A stretch of DNA of 6,437 nucleotides from a virus (IMGVR_UViG_2617270947_000009); one strand, 5' to 3'. Positions 1 to 6,437 are shown, counted from the stretch's first letter. The notes: a model not told the origin generated them from the letters alone. Translations and numbers: made by a program.

Positions 1-341
1 CCCGTCGACCGTCCGGCACGGTCCATCACAGTGATAAAGGTTCTCAGTATGTATCGCTGGCCTACACACAGCGGCTTAAGGAAGCCGGATTACTGGCATC
101 AACAGGAAGTACAGGCGACTCGTATGACAACGCGATGGCGGAGAGCATCAATGGTCTTTACAAAGCGGAGGTAATACACCGTAAGAGCTGGAAAAACCGT
201 GCAGAAGTGGAACTGGCCACACTCACGTGGGTGGACTGGTATAACAATCGACGATTGCTGGAAAGGCTGGGCCATACTCCTCCGGCAGAAGCAGAAAAAG
301 CTTATTATGCTTCCATCAGAAACGATGATCTGGCAGCCTGA
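1..341 (+). CDS. IS3-family transposase OrfB (DDE integrase domain), C-terminal portion; 5'-partial at window edge
   Basis: Open frame 3-341, TGA stop at 339-341; conserved HSDKGSQY and YDNAMAESINGLYKAE motifs; the ATG at 135 in the ORF track is internal, not the true start. Confidence 0.85.
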   Translation, partial: RRPSGTVHHSDKGSQYVSLAYTQRLKEAGLLASTGSTGDSYDNAMAESINGLYKAEVIHRKSWKNRAEVELATLTWVDWYNNRRLLERLGHTPPAEAEKAYYASIRNDDLAA

Positions 342-383
342 GTTCACAGATAAAACACTCTCCAGGAAAACCGGGGCGGTTCA
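1..383 (+). mobile_element. Partial IS3-family insertion sequence (3' part of transposase gene plus terminal inverted repeat); the copy continues beyond the window start
   Basis: Frame-3 translation from nt 3 gives RRPSGTVHHSDKGSQYVSLAYTQRLKEAGLLASTGSTGDSYDNAMAESINGLYKAEVIH..., a DDE integrase-core signature (HSDxGSQY, DNAxAES..K..E) typical of IS3-family OrfB. After the TGA at 339-341 comes an approx. 42-bp terminal sequence ending ...CCGGGGCGGTTCA at 383 (outside-in: TGAACCGCCCCGG, the TGA...-type terminus of IS3-family elements). The same sequence occurs reverse-complemented at 6009-6437. Confidence 0.85.
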
Positions 384-386
384 CTG

Positions 387-2204
387 GTGGATAAATCCGG
401 CGCAGTCACAGCAGCACAGACTATTACCTCACATGGTGAAAAAAGACTCCTGACAGGTTCGGCAAAGCGGGGGGCATATCACGCCATAAACGCACAGAAA
501 CGACCTCACAGCATCATAATTGCTGAGGGGGTGGCTACCGCCCTGTCGTGCCATTTAATTCGCCCTGACGCAATGACAGTGGCAGCAATCGACGCTGGCA
601 ACCTGTTGCCAGTAGCGGAAGTCATGCGCAGAACATATCCACAGGCACAAATCATCATTGCCGCAGATAACGATCACCAGCAAGGAAACTCCGAAAGTGG
701 AGGGATCAACACGGGGAAAGATGCCGCAGAGAGGGCCGCTATTTCCGTAGCTGGCTGGGTGTCTCTGCCACCGACTGACTATAAAGCCGACTGGAACGAC
801 TATCACCAACAACACGGGCTGGCGGCAGCCACAGCAGCATTTAAAGATTCGATGTACCAGCCACGGGGGAAAGGGGCGCAGGTGAAAAATCACAAACAGT
901 CAGTCGGGGCGCTGAATGAGATCAGTTCTGGCGAGGTGTTAAGCGATGATGAAATTGCTGTCCTCGAAGAAATCAACCGGACGTTTACGCATGTCACCAT
1001 CGGCGGGAAACACAAGGGGGGGTCGCTAAAGCCTTCTCAAAACGGCGGGGTATCGCACCTTTTTGAGGGTTTATCACAATTTCAGCATTATTTTCATCAT
1101 AAACCGAGAGTCGCCAGAAAGCTGGCGGGATCGGCGTGGCTGTCATGGAGTGGGAAGAACTACAAGCCAGGAGGCGTAGGATTTTATCCAGTACCAGACA
1201 AATGCCCTGACGATGTTTTTAATCTGTATGAGGGGCTGGCACTGGAACCAATTGAAGGAGATTGCACGGTATACCTTAATCACCTGTTGCAGGTTGTCTG
1301 TGCCGGTAATGAAGAGGCATACCAATATCTTATCCAGTGGATGGCGCACATTATCCAAAAGCCTGATGAAAAACCGTCCGTGGCAATCGTGATGAAATCT
1401 GTCCCGGGCACAGGGAAAGGCACAACGGTTAAACCGCTGCTGCAAATACTGGGGCAGTACGCCGCCCACATTAACGGGGCGGGACATATTTCAGGGCGCT
1501 TCAATTCAATACTTGCTAACAAACTACTGGTATTTGCTGACGAAGTGACGATCCACAAGCCGTCTGAAGCTGACAGACTTAAAGCGATTATTAGTGAACC
1601 GACGTTTAACCTTGAGCGCAAGGGAATTGATGCTGAACCAATGCCGAATTTTGCCCGGTTGATATTTGCCAGTAACAGCACACAGGTATTACAGGCAGGG
1701 ATAAGAGAGCGTCGCTATCTCGTGCTTGAGCCATCTCCTGAAAAAGCACAGAGCCGGGAGTATTTTGATCGGCTGTACAGTTGGCTTAATGATGGCGGTG
1801 CCGCAAAGTTGCTTTGGCATCTTAAAGGGGTGGATCTCTCAGGTTTTGACCCTCAACGAGCGCCACAGACCGATGCCTTACGTGAAGAAATCTTGCTGGG
1901 GCTGTCTGGCGTTGAATTGTTTCTTTATGGCGAGCTAATCAATGAACCTCCGTTTAATGGCGAAGTCCGTTTGTTTGCAAAGGATATGGTTAGTCGGTTT
2001 GTAGCGTGGTCGCTTGAGCGTGGGGAAAAGCTTAAAGAACCAGCTGCCAGATCACTACTGGGTAAATCACTTGCACAAATGGGGCTGGTGAAGCATGGAA
2101 GACCAGACCGAGGGAATGGCGTGTTCTACGAACTACCAGAGGTCGGAGTTCTACAGGCTGCGTTTGCCCGTCTGATCGGTATGGGGGGTTATGATGTTTT
2201 TTAA
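387..2204 (+). CDS. P4 alpha-type primase/helicase, N-terminally truncated at the IS junction (likely pseudogene or remnant)
   Basis: Toprim motif AEGVATA (E codon at 525-527) and IIIAADNDHQ DxD motif (D codons 666-668 and 672-674); Walker A VPGTGKGT (approx. 1404-1424) and Walker B LLVFADE (approx. 1525-1545). The open frame begins immediately at the IS end (384), with GTG at 387 as first possible start. In P4 alpha the EGYATA motif lies about 170 residues further from the N-terminus, so about 170 aa including the zinc-binding region appear missing. Stop TAA at 2202-2204. Confidence 0.8.
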   Translation: MDKSGAVTAAQTITSHGEKRLLTGSAKRGAYHAINAQKRPHSIIIAEGVATALSCHLIRPDAMTVAAIDAGNLLPVAEVMRRTYPQAQIIIAADNDHQQGNSESGGINTGKDAAERAAISVAGWVSLPPTDYKADWNDYHQQHGLAAATAAFKDSMYQPRGKGAQVKNHKQSVGALNEISSGEVLSDDEIAVLEEINRTFTHVTIGGKHKGGSLKPSQNGGVSHLFEGLSQFQHYFHHKPRVARKLAGSAWLSWSGKNYKPGGVGFYPVPDKCPDDVFNLYEGLALEPIEGDCTVYLNHLLQVVCAGNEEAYQYLIQWMAHIIQKPDEKPSVAIVMKSVPGTGKGTTVKPLLQILGQYAAHINGAGHISGRFNSILANKLLVFADEVTIHKPSEADRLKAIISEPTFNLERKGIDAEPMPNFARLIFASNSTQVLQAGIRERRYLVLEPSPEKAQSREYFDRLYSWLNDGGAAKLLWHLKGVDLSGFDPQRAPQTDALREEILLGLSGVELFLYGELINEPPFNGEVRLFAKDMVSRFVAWSLERGEKLKEPAARSLLGKSLAQMGLVKHGRPDRGNGVFYELPEVGVLQAAFARLIGMGGYDVF

Positions 2205-2233
2205 TATAGTCTTTTTACAAGAAGATCGTTTTT

Positions 2234-2337
2234 ACCTGTACCACCTATACCACTTTGATAATTCAGCATTAAAAACAATGCGTTATAGTGGTACAGGTCA
2301 ATATCTTACCTATACCAGACCTGTACCACCTATACCA
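2234..2337. repeat. Iteron cluster downstream of primase (candidate origin): 19-bp direct repeat ACCTGTACCACCTATACCA at 2234-2252 and 2319-2337, inverted core copy GTGGTACAGGT at 2288-2298, partial copy CCTATACCAG at 2308-2317, flanking an AT-rich stretch (2254-2287)
   Basis: Repeats read directly from the sequence; the arrangement of iterons next to an AT-rich segment just 3' of a primase/helicase gene resembles P4 ori and SaPI/PICI origins. Confidence 0.6.
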
Positions 2338-2380
2338 TTAACAAACGCATTTCTTCTGGCTGGCTGAAAGGGAACAACCA

Positions 2381-2611
2381 ATGATGAGCACACCATTTTA
2401 CAAAGTGCGCCAGTTAGCTTCTTCCTCTGGCTGGCAGCTACGGTTTGAGGGGCGTTCAGACTGGCTACCCATTGCGGCATGGGCGAATGTTGAAATGTGT
2501 ATTGACGGCGATACCGTTGAAATCATTATTCCCTGCGTGGCAAGTCGGGACGGCTGTATAGAGCCAACAGATATGGCAGCAGAAATCAGAGAGGTAAAAC
2601 ATGAACAATAA
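2381..2611 (+). CDS. Hypothetical protein, 76 aa
   Basis: ATG at 2381 preceded by AAAGGG (2368-2373) at appropriate spacing; overlaps the next gene by 11 nt (translational coupling); no family recognised by eye. Confidence 0.55.
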   Translation: MMSTPFYKVRQLASSSGWQLRFEGRSDWLPIAAWANVEMCIDGDTVEIIIPCVASRDGCIEPTDMAAEIREVKHEQ

Positions 2612-3338
2612 CTATTGCATACCGCAGGGAATGACCAGAACGGAGCGCGAAGAATTAAAAAGTTTCGCTACACAGTGCGGGAATGCTGGCGACATCCAAA
2701 GTCTGGAACGCACTTTAATTATGATTACGCACTGGATGCGTCAGGGGCAAAGGGTTTCATTTACTGAATATGCCAGCCAGTGGACAGAGGCACAGCGCGA
2801 ACGGAGCGACGGTAATCACTCAACACCCGAAATGGCGAAGCAATGGCCTTTCAGTGGTAAACGCTGTATCAGTCCCGGTGGTTCAGATTATTACCCTGCT
2901 GGTGTGGGAGATGAGCCATGTTGTGACGAGACTGAAATCCGCCACGCAGTGACAGTAATTACCGCTGAATACCCACAATTTAACCTTGACGGACTGGCGC
3001 TCCACAACCGGAATGCGGACTGGGAAAACCCGCTTGATAACCCGTCATTTATCGTATCGGCGAAAAGCTGCCTGAGATGGATCAGAGACAACGGGATGAG
3101 TAATGCCCAGATTGAGAGCTTCCCGCAGGATAACCCCACATCTGACACGTTGAAGCATGAAGTGGAGCGATATAACCAGATAAACCACCAGCACAGTGAT
3201 CACCCGCACTATATCCCCAACGGAGCATTTATTGCGGCGATGGTGGCAAGCGGCTACAAGGTTAAGCCAGCGGGAAGAATGAACGCATTTTTCAATATTT
3301 CAAAAAAGGGATTATGTGCTGCTATGGGTAAAAATTAA
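2601..3338 (+). CDS. Hypothetical protein, 245 aa
   Basis: ATG at 2601 preceded by GAGAGG (2588-2593); open frame to TAA at 3336-3338; ORF of this length in the same orientation as neighbours; no recognisable catalytic motif. Confidence 0.6.
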   Translation: MNNNYCIPQGMTRTEREELKSFATQCGNAGDIQSLERTLIMITHWMRQGQRVSFTEYASQWTEAQRERSDGNHSTPEMAKQWPFSGKRCISPGGSDYYPAGVGDEPCCDETEIRHAVTVITAEYPQFNLDGLALHNRNADWENPLDNPSFIVSAKSCLRWIRDNGMSNAQIESFPQDNPTSDTLKHEVERYNQINHQHSDHPHYIPNGAFIAAMVASGYKVKPAGRMNAFFNISKKGLCAAMGKN

Positions 3339-3343
3339 ATAAA

Positions 3344-3447
3344 TGGTACAGGTCTGTACAGGTGGGGAGAGGTCATTTTTACCCACCTGTACCACCTGCA
3401 GGCCGCGTCACAAAAGGGTTTGTGACATGGTGGTACAGGTGGTACAG
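3344..3447. repeat. Second iteron cluster with the same core (CCTGTACCACC / GGTGGTACAGG): GGTACAGGT 3345-3353, TGTACAGGTGG 3355-3365, CACCTGTACCACCTG 3384-3398, GGTGGTACAGGTGGTACAG 3429-3447; the last two form an inverted repeat around the palindrome at 3407-3426
   Basis: Read directly from the sequence; same core motif as the 2234-2337 cluster, present in both orientations. Confidence 0.6.
3407..3426. promoter_or_regulatory. Perfect palindrome GTCACAAA-AGGG-TTTGTGAC (8-bp arms, 4-nt spacer) nested between inverted iterons; candidate protein-binding site
   Basis: Exact reverse-complement arms at 3407-3414 and 3419-3426; not followed by a T-run, so unlikely to be a terminator. Confidence 0.4.
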
Positions 3448-3611
3448 CAAAAACAGCGATTTTCTTTATAAGGTTTTATAAGGTATGTTTTGCTCATCTG
3501 GCAGACGGAGGTATTCGCTGCGGTTTGGCACATAGCCCAGAACAGCAAAGAGTTTTACGAGACTTTTGTAAAATCCAGTGTACAAGGGCGTGACGTTTTT
3601 GAAGGAGGGAC

Positions 3612-3628
3612 CTACGAAATTTTCGTAG
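3612..3628. promoter_or_regulatory. 17-bp perfect palindrome CTACGAAA-T-TTTCGTAG; candidate operator
   Basis: Arms 3612-3619 and 3621-3628 are exact reverse complements; AT-rich centre; preceded by a GAAGGAGGG stretch (3601-3609) with no start codon following. Confidence 0.35.
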
Positions 3629-3822
3629 TTCAAAAAATAGCCTCTGAGATGTTGTTATGCCTGTTCAGCAAACCATCCGCATAGCTGATCGCGAATCAAA
3701 TTACCAATGGAGCCAGAAGCAAGGGCAGAACTGGAAAGCGCCTGCCGTGAAGAGTAATGCGACATCGTAAATATAGTTTTTAGAGTCCATAAAAAAACTG
3801 TCAAAACCTGACATACAGAACG

Positions 3823-3855
3823 ATGCCACCAGCTACTGAACGGTGGCATTTTTTT
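3823..3855 (+). terminator. Rho-independent terminator (8-bp GC-rich stem ATGCCACC/GGTGGCAT, 11-nt loop, run of 7 T)
   Basis: Stem 3823-3830 pairs with 3842-3849; T-run 3849-3855; orientation fits + strand transcription only. Confidence 0.6.
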
Positions 3856-3874
3856 GTGCTATTTGTTTCATATT

Positions 3875-3917
3875 TTGCAATCACAATGATGAATGTTGCG
3901 TTTTATGAAACTATAAT
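3875..3917 (+). promoter_or_regulatory. Putative promoter for the downstream operon: consensus -10 TATAAT at 3912-3917; no good -35 at 16-18 bp spacing (TTGCAA at 3875-3880 is 31 bp upstream)
   Basis: Perfect -10 hexamer 34 nt upstream of the 3951 start codon and downstream of the terminator; the lack of a -35 suggests activator dependence or a misplaced call. Confidence 0.35.
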
Positions 3918-3950
3918 GACTGTTGTTTTATACAGTTCTAAGGGGGCGTT

Positions 3951-4124
3951 ATGGCTATTTCAGTAAAGCCAGTATTGATAAGTGAGAAGCAAATGGAAGC
4001 GATAAAGAAAATTCAGGAGGAGCAGCGTAAAAAATCAGAGGTAGGAGTTGCGCCAACGATCCACGAAATTGCTCGGGGATTAATGGATAAGGCGCTGGCT
4101 TACACTTTAACTGGACGTGGGTAA
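3951..4124 (+). CDS. Small hypothetical protein, 57 aa (MAISVKPVLISEKQMEAIKKIQEEQRKKSEVGVAPTIHEIARGLMDKALAYTLTGRG); possible small DNA-binding (ribbon-helix-helix-like) protein; absent from the supplied ORF track
   Basis: ATG at 3951 preceded by a strong Shine-Dalgarno AAGGGGG (3940-3946); stop TAA at 4122-4124, 4 nt before the ATG of the next gene; predicted strand-helix-turn-helix layout is inferred by eye only. Confidence 0.55.
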   Translation: MAISVKPVLISEKQMEAIKKIQEEQRKKSEVGVAPTIHEIARGLMDKALAYTLTGRG

Positions 4125-4128
4125 ATCA

Positions 4129-5595
4129 ATGGCTACGTGGCAACAGGGTATTAATTCTGGTGGTTTTCTGGCTGGCATCGGTACGCAAAATGAGAATGCG
4201 CCAAAGGCAAGCGACATTAACGCAACGCTTGGTCTGATCCGCGAAAACAATGAACTGGCTCGATCAGGTGCAAATAACGTTGCTCTGACAGGTCTTCGTG
4301 GTCTGGCTGGAGTTGCTGATATTTATAAGCAGCAGCAACAGCAGGAGCGTAAAGCGGCATTCCAGAAAGGTTATGCAGATGCTTATGCGTCCGGTGACAG
4401 GGAGCAGATGCGTAATCTTATTACAGCATTCCCAGAAGAGTTTGAGGAAGTCCGTAAAGGGATGAGTTATGTCGATGATGCTCAAAGGGATGATTATGGC
4501 AATCTGGCGCTCAAAGCACAGGTAGCCTCATCGCTTGGTCAGGGCGCATTTGGCAGGTTCATGATGGATAATGAGCAGGAGATGCGTCGTTTAGGTATCC
4601 CTCCAGAAACTATTGCTGAAATGCAGGTTAATGACCCGCAGGGCTTCCAGCATTTCGCAGGTAATCTGGCGCTGTTTTCTCTCGGTCATGAGAAGTATTT
4701 CGATATCAAAGATCAAATGGAAGGTCGGGATATTGAACGTGGCAAGTTGGCAGAGACAATCCGCAGCAATCAGGCCAGCGAAGCACTTCAGGCGAGAGGG
4801 CAGGATATTAGCCGAGCAAATGCGTTAACGTCAGCATATGCACCAACAGCAGCAATGCAGAATTACAATCAGTACGCTCAAATGTTAAAGGCGGATCCAG
4901 AGGGGGCGGCGGCATTTGCGGCAGCGGCTGGAATTAATACAAACGCCAAAAAATTAATGAGTGTTAGAGAAAACGATGATGGCACTGTCACAAAATACTA
5001 CACAGACGGAAGTGAAGAGCAGGGAAAACTAAACCAGCCAATATCTGGAGATGGGTTTCGTCCAATAGCTTTGCCAACAGCCCAAAAGATCATGGAAAAG
5101 TCGCCAGAAGGGGCTAAAAAAGCTGCTGGATTTGCATACAGAGTTAGGGATGCTCTTGATTCAATGGATACACTGAAAGGCCAGCTTAGCCCACAGCGAG
5201 TGGCGATCATTAATAATGCTTTGGGTAATGGGACGCTGGCTAACTTAACGCTCACCCCAACAGAGCAGCAATACGTTGTTAATGCTAATGACGCAATAAT
5301 GGCAATACTCCGTCAGGAAACAGGGGCAGCTATCGTACCTGCTGAAATGTCAAAATATTATCAAATGTATTTCCCTCAGCCTGGCGACTCCACAAAAACC
5401 ATTGATACCAAGCGCCGGAAGATGGAAAACCAGTTCAATTCGCTGAAAGCTGCTTCTGGTCGAGCTTATGATGCTTTGCGGGTTATTTCAGCAGTTGACA
5501 GAGGGACTTCTTCTTCGTCGCAGACATTGCCGCAATCTGAGCAGGTATCACAGCCAGCAGCCAGCAGTAATTTTTCTTCACTATGGGGTGATTAA
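4129..5595 (+). CDS. Hypothetical protein, about 488 aa (492 aa if the GTG at 4117 is used); Ala/Gln/Gly-rich, low complexity with a QQQQQ run, no catalytic motif recognised
   Basis: Long uninterrupted frame; ATG at 4129 closely follows the upstream stop; stop TAA at 5593-5595 overlaps the next start (TAATG); the composition is the kind seen in phage scaffold, ejection or tape-measure-like proteins, but the family is not identified. Confidence 0.65.
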   Translation: MATWQQGINSGGFLAGIGTQNENAPKASDINATLGLIRENNELARSGANNVALTGLRGLAGVADIYKQQQQQERKAAFQKGYADAYASGDREQMRNLITAFPEEFEEVRKGMSYVDDAQRDDYGNLALKAQVASSLGQGAFGRFMMDNEQEMRRLGIPPETIAEMQVNDPQGFQHFAGNLALFSLGHEKYFDIKDQMEGRDIERGKLAETIRSNQASEALQARGQDISRANALTSAYAPTAAMQNYNQYAQMLKADPEGAAAFAAAAGINTNAKKLMSVRENDDGTVTKYYTDGSEEQGKLNQPISGDGFRPIALPTAQKIMEKSPEGAKKAAGFAYRVRDALDSMDTLKGQLSPQRVAIINNALGNGTLANLTLTPTEQQYVVNANDAIMAILRQETGAAIVPAEMSKYYQMYFPQPGDSTKTIDTKRRKMENQFNSLKAASGRAYDALRVISAVDRGTSSSSQTLPQSEQVSQPAASSNFSSLWGD

Positions 5596-6011
5596 TGGCT
5601 AAAGCATGGAAAGATGTTATCGCCTCTCCACAGTATCAGGCGTTAGCACCAGAACAAAAAGCGCAGGCTCAGGAGCAATACTTCAATGAAGTCGTGGCCC
5701 CGCAAGCCGGAGAAAGTGTAGCGCAGGCTAAGCAGGCTTTTTATGCTGCCTATCCACTACCATCAACGAATGAAATAGACCGATCCCAATCAGCAACTCA
5801 AAATATTCAACATACATCATCTGATAATTCTCTTGCGTCAGGGTATGCAAAGTTAGCGACTCAGCAAAGAGAGGGGCTTGAGCGTTCAGCAGAACAGGGA
5901 GCCAGTCTTGGGGCTGCGATGCGCGATGCTATAACAGGCGAAAGCCGAATGACTCCAGAGATGGAGAGACTGCAAAATGTCGACCTTGCCCCAGAGTTAA
6001 CCTCACTCTGA
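5595..6011 (+). CDS. Hypothetical protein, 138 aa as it stands; probably C-terminally truncated, because the stop codon TGA (6009-6011) is the first three bases of the IS terminus
   Basis: ATG at 5595 overlaps the preceding stop (translational coupling); the last native codon ends at 6008 and the IS end TGAACCGCCCCGG begins at 6009. Confidence 0.55.
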   Translation: MAKAWKDVIASPQYQALAPEQKAQAQEQYFNEVVAPQAGESVAQAKQAFYAAYPLPSTNEIDRSQSATQNIQHTSSDNSLASGYAKLATQQREGLERSAEQGASLGAAMRDAITGESRMTPEMERLQNVDLAPELTSL

Positions 6012-6437
6012 ACCGCCCCGGGTTTCCTGGAGAGTGTTTTATCTGTGAACTCAGGCTGCCAGATCATCGTTTCCGATGGAAGCATAATAAGCTTTTTCTG
6101 CTTCTGCCGGAGGAGTATGGCCCAGCCTTTCCAGCAATCGTCGATTGTTATACCAGTCCACCCACGTGAGTGTGGCCAGTTCCACTTCTGCACGGTTTTT
6201 CCAGCTCTTACGGTGTATTACCTCCGCTTTGTAAAGACCATTGATGCTCTCCGCCATCGCGTTGTCATACGAGTCGCCTGTACTTCCTGTTGATGCCAGT
6301 AATCCGGCTTCCTTAAGCCGCTGTGTGTAGGCCAGCGATACATACTGAGAACCTTTATCACTGTGATGGACCGTGCCGGACGGTCGACGGGCCCATAACG
6401 CCTGCTCCAGTGCATCCAGCACGAATGTCGTTTCCAT
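6009..6437 (-). mobile_element. Partial IS3-family insertion sequence, second copy in inverted orientation (terminal repeat plus 3' part of transposase gene); continues beyond the window end
   Basis: 6009-6391 is the reverse complement of 1-383, with two mismatches found by eye (6022 and 6074); terminal sequence TGAACCGCCCCGGGTTTCCTGG at 6009-6030. Confidence 0.85.
6051..6437 (-). CDS. IS3-family transposase OrfB (DDE integrase domain), C-terminal portion; 5'-partial at window edge
   Basis: Translation ...RRPSGTVHHSDKGSQYVSLAYTQRLKEAGLLASTGSTGDSYDNAMAESINGLYKAEVIH...ASIGNDDLAA matches the copy at 1-341 except one residue (G vs R); stop (TCA on + strand) at 6051-6053. Confidence 0.85.
   Translation of the reverse strand: METTFVLDALEQALWARRPSGTVHHSDKGSQYVSLAYTQRLKEAGLLASTGSTGDSYDNAMAESINGLYKAEVIHRKSWKNRAEVELATLTWVDWYNNRRLLERLGHTPPAEAEKAYYASIGNDDLAA

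Follow-up and report, generated by a model that had tools for sequence, protein, structure and literature searches.

A three-gene operon in a viral sequence is the broken ejection-protein cassette of an EcCIMP1-family satellite island

What is encoded by the three-gene operon at positions 3951-6011 of the viral sequence IMGVR_UViG_2617270947_000009? A preliminary description of this stretch of 6,437 nucleotides (called the window below) had considered the operon an undescribed module of unknown function. We find that it is a broken ejection-protein cassette of a phage satellite, and thus not a new defence or piracy system. Its genes are not undescribed: gp20 and gp16 are annotated in RefSeq, and the EcCIMP1 satellite family, to which they belong, has been published. 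New are a conserved leader open reading frame (ORF), a LexA-type box in Escherichia coli, the observation that cargo coding for delivery proteins is always found behind the leader, and an identity of about 25% to gp20 and gp16 of the helper phage. The operon is composed of the following ORFs:

3951-4124, plus strand: ORF1, the leader, 57 amino acids (aa), with its TAA stop codon at 4122-4124
4129-5595, plus strand: ORF2, an intact gp20-type ejection protein, 488 aa (PF16928, phrog_917; "phage DNA ejection protein" in RefSeq)
5595-6011, plus strand: ORF3, the N-terminal part (138 aa) of a gp16-type ejection protein, which has 701 aa when intact; homology covers 5595-6008

The three ORFs are co-directional, and the coordinates initially assigned to them needed no correction. 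The reading frame of ORF2 opens at a GTG (4117). We take the ATG at 4129 as the real start codon because RefSeq uses it in identical DNA and because the resulting N-terminus, MATWQQGINSGGFLAG (MATWQQG), is that of P22 gp20. The tight coupling that had been reported for the three genes is present at both junctions: ORF1 and ORF2 are separated by 4 nt (ATCA, between the TAA at 4122-4124 and the ATG at 4129), and the ATG of ORF3 (5595) lies within the sequence TAATG (5593-5597), overlapping the stop codon of ORF2. The ORF2 product had been called Ala/Gln/Gly-rich and of low complexity. The first part of this statement is correct, the commonest residues being A (13.7%), G (8.4%) and Q (8.0%); the second applies only marginally, as a single 20-residue window is of low complexity.

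ORF2 can be assigned with confidence, over its full length, to the P22 gp20 ejection-protein family. It matches PF16928 (Inj_translocase) with 278.9 bits (cutoff 29.7; E-value 3.8e-83; residues 16-232 on profile positions 1-217 of 218) and phrog_917 with an E-value of 7.7e-142 (residues 5-492 on profile positions 1-504 of 509). In the P22-type DNA conduit, gp20 is a component of the tube that spans the periplasm; P22-like phages release gp20 and gp16 from the virion to form a DNA channel across the cell envelope. ORF3 is identical to the start of an intact gene for a 701-aa protein (17896-20001 in locus L002, from E. coli SW070919). The intact protein matches phrog_770 ("DNA transfer protein"; E-value 1.5e-154, residues 19-700), and RefSeq uses the name "P22-gp16 family phage DNA ejection protein" for DNA with 92.7% identity. 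Pfam-A has no match for the intact protein from L002; its counterpart from Serratia has precomputed matches to PF26808, which are marked as faint. NCBIfam returned no match for any cassette protein, though RefSeq product names exist. The earlier statements that the function is unknown and that no conserved motif can be recognized are thus superseded: ORF2 belongs to the gp20 family over its full length, ORF3 is a gp16-type N-terminus, and the relevant profiles are PF16928 for ORF2 and phrog_770 for the intact third gene.

The gene order gp20-gp16, including the stop/start overlap, is common to P22 (Lederbergvirus; L014) and to a P22-like prophage of E. coli (L013), in both of which the full set is gp26 (needle), gp14, gp7, gp20 and gp16. 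Neither gp20 nor gp16 has a signal peptide, and the intact gp16-type protein has a hydrophobic C-terminal segment (625-649). In a PADLOC search, no defence-system family matched the three proteins of the operon, those of neighbouring genes or those encoded downstream in relatives. It should be noted that the "gp20" of the paper on "Tai" (tail assembly interference) is the central tail fibre of another phage and unrelated. Confident homology to phage ejection proteins, combined with phage gene order, was the result upon which the preliminary description would have fallen back on ordinary prophage structural cargo. Homology and gene order were indeed found, but the fallback does not fit either: the genes reside in an integrase/AlpA/primase island that is devoid of capsid and tail genes, and not in a prophage.

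The window remnant derives from a phage-inducible chromosomal island (PICI) of the EcCIMP1 family, a satellite of P22-like podophages. Positions 384-6008 are 99.4% identical to, and collinear with, part of an intact island of ~17 kb in E. coli SW070919 (L002). The gene order in L002 is integrase, helix-turn-helix (HTH) regulator, AntA/AntB, DUF4222, Ash, small ORFs, 783-aa primase, two ORFs of 76 and 245 aa, the operon, Abi and PerC. Intact islands (L002, L001, L004 and L006) are ~15-18 kb long, carry an integrase, an AlpA-type regulator and a primase, and are found at a fixed chromosomal site. Pfam Phage_AlpA matches were obtained for the relatives from Serratia and Erwinia; the window itself retains the truncated primase only. 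The family occupies two chromosomal sites, the second being the tRNA-Thr next to proA, where the same cassette occurs together with a DUF927 primase. No coat, portal, terminase, tail or lysis/holin genes are annotated in the intact islands examined. They do carry internal virion (ejection) proteins or, in other genera, a tape-measure protein (TMP) or baseplate hub. Features of P4-like elements (sid, psu, delta, alpha-type primase) were not found in Pfam and PHROG scans of the window and of several island proteins, nor are they annotated in L001 and L002. The backbone gene that is retained in the window is:

384-2204, plus strand: island primase/helicase, 5'-truncated (Toprim PF13362 and DUF5906 PF19263; PHROG DNA-primase families)

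In L002 the primase is intact (12164-14515, 783 aa), and the alignment with the window starts at position 12695 of that locus. The operon had been placed downstream of the replication module of a satellite-type element, and this placement is correct.

EcCIMP1, the PICI of E. coli MP1, excises only upon induction of the P22-like prophage Kapi1, which transduces it (Pick, Stadel and Raivio, ISME J 2025; PMC11773190). Its post-primase genes were noted to resemble "DNA transfer proteins" and DUF2824, and a role in packaging was suggested (PMC11773190). The MP1 transcriptome paper reports that EcCIMP1 genes are upregulated in Kapi1 lysogens, without naming the genes in its text. The EcCIMP1 cassette (L003) consists of the leader, a gp14-like protein (DUF2824, phrog_651), a gp7-like protein (phrog_598, "DNA ejection"), a gp20-like protein and a gp16-like protein, the latter with 906 aa and an N-terminal lytic transglycosylase domain (SLT). 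EcCIMP1 and the window island share integrase, AlpA-type HTH regulator, AntA, DUF4222, Ash, primase, leader, ejection genes and PerC. The ejection genes follow the primase in both, the leaders are 88% identical, and promoter, LexA box and terminator are alike. They differ in the cassette, which in EcCIMP1 is gp14, gp7, gp20 and SLT-gp16 (153, 225, 439 and 906 aa), whereas that of the window type is gp20 and gp16 (488 and 701 aa), with proteins that are ~25% identical. They also differ in the primase, which is of DUF927 type in EcCIMP1 and of DUF5906 type, with two extra ORFs, in the window. The authors of the EcCIMP1 study did not identify the genes as the P22 ejection set, and the window copy, unlike EcCIMP1, is truncated by an insertion sequence (IS). 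A third cassette variant (L004) has gp14, gp7 and a gp20, the last of which is mosaic with the gp20 of the window. At least 80% of the unit leader+gp20+gp16 is present in 303 of 5426 complete E. coli genomes.

The copy in the window is inactivated, being a 5.6 kb island remnant between two inverted IS copies:

1-383, plus strand: right-hand end of an IS3-family element (left copy), which cuts the island primase; transposase C-terminus with rve domains; island homology begins at 384
6009-6437, minus strand: right-hand end of another copy of this IS3-family element, in inverted orientation; rve-domain transposase C-terminus, with terminal TGA

The segments 1-383 and 6009-6391 form a 383-nt inverted repeat with 99% complementarity. 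The left copy removes ~175 N-terminal codons of the primase, and the right copy removes 563 of the 701 codons of gp16. As had been recognized, an IS interrupts the third gene: beyond 6008 there is no further homology to the intact 701-aa gene, and the stop codon of ORF3 (TGA, 6009-6011) is formed by the first three bases of the IS3-family element. The remaining protein comprises 138 of 701 residues and lacks the hydrophobic segment 625-649. DNA delivery depends on gp16, which has to be matched to its gp20 (PMC10461980), and the window cassette therefore cannot work. The inward-facing right ends of the two IS copies bracket the 5.6 kb fragment in a way that resembles a composite transposon or the product of an inversion/deletion. 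In a search of 5426 complete E. coli genomes, none was found to contain the IS/gp16 junction. Other IS insertions in the ejection cassette, namely ISEc23 (IS66-family) and another IS3-family element, were encountered in H81 (NZ_OZ040950.1) and H91 (NZ_CP157110.1). These are independent events, so that IS disruption of the cassette is recurrent.

In intact islands, the ORFs are undisrupted and dN/dS (the ratio of nonsynonymous to synonymous substitution rates) is 0.10-0.31 where close pairs exist, which suggests that the genes are functional there. The window type and the EcCIMP1 type are only 25% (gp20) and 24% (gp16) identical and thus as divergent as are the types among P22-like phages. For EcCIMP1 and its helper Kapi1, the one validated pair, identity is 83% for gp14 and 57% for gp7 but 24.7% for gp20 and 26.4% for gp16. 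The satellite therefore brings a different gp20/gp16 pair, not a copy of that of its helper. Among 50,697 phage records, no match exceeds ~52% over at least 80% of the window gp20, and none exceeds ~28% to the EcCIMP1 gp20.

The divergence is unevenly distributed. Over residues 1-60, identity of the window gp20 to P22, Kapi1 and an HK620-like prophage is 93-96%; it is 56-70% for the next 30 residues and 6-56% for the rest. The C-terminal FSSLWGD is shared with the allele of the HK620-like prophage. The window-type gp16 is 90% identical to the HK620-like allele over its first 30 residues and ~20% identical beyond. Window-type cassettes are devoid of gp7, and cassettes that have their own gp7 have another gp20 N-terminus. 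According to PMC13622523, the order of channel assembly is gp10, gp7, gp20, gp16. With only few cassette types at hand, we infer that the N-terminal end of gp20 may be kept compatible with the gp7 of the helper, while the body of the channel would be satellite-specific. In summary of the comparison with P22, the satellite pair has full-length homology, the same gene order and stop/start overlap, and near-identical N-terminal ~60-70 residues of gp20, but identity to phage alleles drops to 6-56% in the central and C-terminal regions. Unlike the P22 genes, the pair is part of an element without coat, portal, tail and gp7 genes, and has its own promoter, leader and LexA box in place of a Q-dependent late operon.

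The region upstream of the cassette is conserved beyond E. coli and contains the following elements:

3549-3950, plus strand: cassette "head", regulatory and conserved; the DNA shared with L001, L003 and L004, which differ in primase and/or cargo, begins only at 3549, and a cross-genus alignment has conserved blocks
3822-3856, plus strand: hairpin and U-run resembling an intrinsic terminator, upstream of the operon promoter and conserved in E. coli loci
3912-3917, plus strand: -10 hexamer TATAAT, present in nearly all related loci examined
3918-3937, plus strand: LexA (SOS)-type box GACTGTTGTTTTATACAGTT, one base after the -10 hexamer
3941-3946, plus strand: Shine-Dalgarno sequence AGGGGG of the leader, 4 nt before its ATG

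An upstream intrinsic terminator, a consensus -10 element and a Shine-Dalgarno sequence had been proposed, and all three were found. The hairpin has a G+C-rich stem of 9 bp (3822-3830/3842-3850), a loop of 11 nt and a U-run at 3851-3856. Its folding free energy is -19.1 kcal/mol (z = -4.46; none of 200 shuffled sequences folds equally well), and it was called by a terminator scan. A generic promoter scan did not call the operon promoter, the -35 region of which is poor. Within 70 nt upstream of the leader, TATAAT is missing only in L019 and L029. Position 3549 marks an abrupt recombination boundary: subtypes with other primases or other cargos share the window DNA from there to 4099 or to 6008. 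Thus, the promoter-leader "head" moves as a unit, with or without cargo. A capture of the helper late promoter or of a Q-utilisation region was considered and rejected, as matches to phage DNA start only at the gp20 start codon, and promoter and leader are therefore satellite-specific. An Rfam scan of 3300-4200 resulted in one sub-threshold match, which we attribute to chance.

The exact motif ACTGT-N8-ACAGT is found at 3919-3936, with a chance expectation of 0.16 per window when up to one mismatch is allowed. In an upstream alignment from five genera, an invariant TATAAT is followed by one base and then by ACTGT-N8-ACAGT, and TATAAT-N-ACTGT-N8-ACAG is exact in 9 of 12 leader-bearing loci compared, including those from Serratia and Erwinia. 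The LexA consensus is TACTGTATATATATACAGTA (a CTG-N10-CAG palindrome). The window box agrees with it at 14 of 20 positions, both arms (ACTGT and ACAGT) being perfect, and is roughly as good as the bona fide LexA box of uvrB. The box from Serratia reaches 17 of 20 positions, with identical arms but a spacer that differs from that of the window. The canonical spacing CTG-N10-CAG occurs in Escherichia, Serratia marcescens, Erwinia persicina, Pantoea (L022, L030) and Lonsdalea. A spacing that is one base short (CTG-N9-CAG) occurs in Klebsiella, Raoultella, Chimaeribacter, Rahnella, Serratia silvae, an uncultured Erwinia metagenome-assembled genome (L025) and other Pantoea. In this wider sample, no LexA-type box was found at the leader loci of Leclercia and Pectobacterium. 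Universal LexA control of the family is thus ruled out, and SOS control is not a family-wide rule. For the E. coli cassettes, and for these alone, we infer SOS control from the box, with LexA binding being a prediction.

The leader, which is the first gene of the operon, is conserved and satellite-specific, with 53-66 aa across ~11 enterobacterial genera. It is 88% identical between the window and EcCIMP1, while the cargo behind it is only ~25% identical. We collected 45 homologs, all of them from Enterobacterales, and 21 alignment columns are invariant across genera. The leader has no match in Pfam, NCBIfam, PADLOC or a PDB sequence profile search, and one weak match in PHROGs. In an AlphaFold2 model (predicted local distance difference test score, pLDDT, 73.6), an extended N-terminus is followed by helices at 12-28 and 37-53. 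A Foldseek search of the model against the PDB gave no significant fold (best E-value 1.9). The two-helix pattern of the model is compatible with the monomer of a ribbon-helix-helix protein; this assignment is unproven, and support for it was found neither by Foldseek, the PDB profile search, Pfam and NCBIfam nor by BLAST against Arc and Mnt. Mainly because the leader is conserved whatever the cargo, our guess is that it may be a small DNA-binding regulator.

The leader was followed into other genera, and one scan of species-representative genomes resulted in 15 loci. At every leader locus examined, the next genes code for virion proteins for envelope penetration or DNA delivery. In Escherichia and S. 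marcescens, these are P22-type ejection proteins. Erwinia, Pantoea, Chimaeribacter and Lonsdalea have a 108-aa ORF and a TMP (phrog_1107/1538, E-values down to 0), and S. silvae has a truncated TMP. In Leclercia, Klebsiella, Pectobacterium and Raoultella, the cargo consists of internal virion or "head" proteins with lytic domains (phrog_418, 1044, 992, 3003, 7694), and in Rahnella it is a baseplate hub (phrog_196). The surrounding islands keep the backbone of integrase, AlpA, AntA and primase. An ORF of 108-109 aa (phrog_19131) always precedes the satellite tape-measure gene (10177-10503 in L011; also in L021, L022, L025, L027 and L030). By its position, it could be a tail assembly chaperone (TAC), as in the tmp-tac pair of the PLEs (elements resembling phage-inducible chromosomal islands) discussed below.

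It is tempting to speculate that a widespread lineage among the PICI-type satellites of enterobacteria has a dedicated, exchangeable "genome-delivery slot", consisting of a conserved promoter (in part LexA-controlled) and a leader of 53-66 aa, followed by conduit proteins that fit the type of the local helper. For P22-like podophages the slot would then carry gp20/gp16, to which gp14/gp7 may be added; other podophages would be served by lytic internal virion proteins, and long-tailed phages by a tape measure with the small ORF (a possible chaperone) or by a baseplate hub. We put this forward as a tentative generalization, about which we are nearly evenly divided, with doubts slightly ahead, and this applies equally to the assignment of cargo to podophages and to long-tailed phages. 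The literature searched contains no paper on podophage satellites that substitute internal ejection proteins, nor on a leader-headed slot.

What would a satellite gain from such genes? The reading towards which we lean, with some reservation, is that satellite gp20 and gp16 substitute into virions that are built by the helper. Upon SOS induction, LexA would leave the box that overlaps the promoter, and leader, gp20 and gp16 would then be made while the helper prophage assembles its procapsids. The satellite pair would be loaded into helper-built particles, replacing or joining the gp20 and gp16 of the helper. Docking might occur via the phage-type first ~60-70 residues of gp20, its C-terminal FSSLWGD and the ~30 residues, also conserved, at the start of gp16. 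The chimeric particles would deliver satellite DNA through a channel with a satellite-specified body, and the payoff would likely be efficient transfer of the satellite. One plausible route is entry into cells with a P22-like prophage that blocks homologous ejection proteins (SieA-type exclusion). In keeping with this reading, it has been reported that gp16 and gp20 must be a matched pair, that gp7 is interchangeable, that each of the proteins assembles into virions independently, and that escape from SieA maps to the C-terminal regions of gp16 and gp20 (PMC10461980).

A precedent comes from PLEs (Nature 2026, PMC12987554). Their TMP, TAC and baseplate hub are 20-41% identical to those of phage ICP1 and are found in PLE virions, and deletion of tmp reduces transduction by 96-99.9%; tmp genes were noted in other satellites too. 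PLEs and the EcCIMP1 family are alike in that the satellite has its own low-identity versions of delivery or tail-core proteins of the helper, and in relatives of the window island the slot holds a baseplate hub or a TMP preceded by a small ORF. The systems differ in that PLEs are unrelated Vibrio satellites of the lytic myophage ICP1, whereas here the helper is a podophage and the proteins are internal ejection proteins, not tail components. In addition, incorporation and the requirement for transduction were demonstrated for PLEs, whereas both are predictions for the EcCIMP1 family. With respect to regulation, operon I of Staphylococcus aureus pathogenicity islands (SaPIs) is LexA-controlled, according to Ubeda 2007 as summarized in PMC6092414. 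Judged by that summary, it resembles the window operon as a late, virion-related PICI operon under LexA (for the window, as deduced from position and conservation of the box) rather than under late control by the helper. It differs in coding for terS and capsid-size genes instead of ejection proteins, and the box spacing in the window family is non-canonical in many genera.

Several points weigh against substitution into helper virions. Ejection proteins enter procapsids ahead of DNA packaging, and we know of no means by which satellite proteins could be steered specifically to satellite-filled particles. The box could be the operator of another protein, and its canonical spacing is limited to some genera. 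Unmatched mixtures of gp16 and gp20 can be non-functional (PMC10461980). Kapi1 transfers EcCIMP1 inefficiently (~4.8e3 particles/ml), its own titres are not reduced, and a Kapi1-like prophage is present in only 2 of 21 EcCIMP1-bearing strains (PMC11773190). Very different ejection sets (Sf6, L and CUS-3) are all still excluded by SieA (PMC10461980), so that evasion of SieA by the satellite pair is purely speculative.

The divergent pair might also be directed against the helper. Co-assembled with the helper proteins, satellite gp20 and gp16 would result in mismatched channels and act as a "poison subunit" that lowers helper infectivity, to the benefit of the host population. It fits this view that P22 particles with only foreign gp16 or only foreign gp20 are non-infectious despite incorporation (PMC10461980), that the satellite alleles are ~25% identical to those of the helper, that the phage-type N-terminus of gp20 would permit incorporation, and that satellites commonly disturb helper virion assembly (e.g. 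by Tai and by PLE Rta). We nevertheless consider it unlikely. Kapi1 titres after induction are not lowered by EcCIMP1 (PMC11773190), poisoned particles would equally disable transfer of the satellite itself, the complete matched set gp14-gp7-gp20-gp16 of EcCIMP1 exceeds the needs of a poison, and purifying selection acts over the full length of the genes. A function in the resident cell, where the ejection homologs or the leader would obstruct or titrate the channel that arrives with a superinfecting P22-like phage, seems quite unlikely to us. EcCIMP1 adds superinfection immunity against Kapi1 in lysogens, for which PADLOC and DefenseFinder found no known system (PMC11773190); our own PADLOC scan was negative too, and, as a further point in favour, the intact gp16-type protein has the hydrophobic segment at 625-649. 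However, a LexA-repressed promoter behind a terminator predicts low expression in unstressed cells, and gp20 and gp16 are made in the cytoplasm without signal peptides. Better candidates for exclusion are encoded just downstream (the EcCIMP1 lipoprotein, a multi-transmembrane protein of L005 that is weakly SieA-like, and a protein of L004 with four transmembrane segments), and virion assembly explains better why this slot holds a tape measure or a baseplate hub in other genera.

That the cassette is leftover cargo from a degraded P22-like prophage, having no present function, is a view we regard as highly improbable. The homology and synteny with the phage late operon are clear, the window holds only part of the unit, with gp16 truncated and IS copies on both sides, and IS insertions recur in the cassette of other genomes. 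Against this, the architecture of the intact islands is conserved between the two attachment sites and among several genera and is not that of a prophage; coat, portal, terminase, tail and lysis genes are always missing from it. The island has a satellite-specific promoter and leader in place of the phage context, no sequenced phage closely matches the alleles, dN/dS is low as given above, and EcCIMP1 is experimentally mobile (PMC11773190). The prophage-remnant view is thus largely refuted for the family and holds, narrowly, for the inactivated copy in the window. Equally hard to sustain is a function in packaging, by which the post-primase genes would redirect helper packaging to the satellite, as Pick et al. 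proposed for EcCIMP1_017-019 (cf. TerS/Rpp). The genes do occupy the position of the packaging module of other PICIs (PMC11773190), and TerS-like genes occur further downstream in some relatives (phrog_51 and phrog_57 in L009, phrog_51 in L024). Yet the three proteins of the operon show no resemblance to a terminase, to Rpp or to a capsid-size factor, and the matches to ejection-protein families extend over the full length.

The remaining parts of the islands deserve a brief description. Between primase and cassette, the window has two overlapping ORFs:

2381-2611: ORF of 76 aa
2601-3338: ORF of 245 aa

Neither has a match in Pfam, NCBIfam or PADLOC, and a weak PHROG match (phrog_9576, 7e-4) was the only one obtained. 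Both accompany the DUF5906-type primase and are absent from DUF927-type islands. The slot directly after gp16 is occupied by a variable envelope protein, a layout like that of sieA after gene 16 of P22. It is a signal-peptide protein in L002 (20064-20504, minus strand), a protein with four transmembrane segments in L004 (18258-18647, minus strand), a multi-transmembrane protein in L005 (15485-16099, minus strand; weakly similar to P22 SieA, with 28.7% over 108 aa and an E-value of 1.5e-6 in a tiny database) and a lipoprotein with an LAGC lipobox in EcCIMP1 (L003, 11749-12447). These proteins are candidates for the unexplained superinfection immunity of EcCIMP1. Genes of defence or toxin type are found in the accessory regions of related islands (L002 21336-22298, L008 17949-19384, L009 7384-9310, L010 7863-8969), coding for Abi_2, RnlA/RnlB, an AAA_15/AAA_21 ATPase pair and a protein with HTH and Peptidase_M78 domains; PerC-family regulators also occur.

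Even though the operon is not a new system, it is still moderately interesting why satellites carry their own DNA-delivery proteins, with a conserved leader and promoter heading the slot. SatelliteFinder treats tail genes as "forbidden", and PICIs with three core genes were set aside, so that elements of this kind were not analysed there. This suggests that satellite census tools may miss a whole class of satellites, because tail genes are forbidden and three-core-gene elements are discarded. Our analysis assigns a concrete and testable function to the unexplained post-primase genes of EcCIMP1-type islands, which are present in at least ~5% of complete E. coli genomes, and extends the finding of chimeric PLE virions to podophage helpers and to internal ejection proteins. 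If substitution into helper virions is true, this would be the first satellite that replaces the internal ejectosome of a podophage helper, and the entry properties of chimeric particles (e.g. their sensitivity to SieA-type exclusion in lysogens) would be set by the satellite and not by the phage. If the ejection proteins of satellites alter which cells the particles enter, this would matter for host range and for exclusion when genes are moved by phages.

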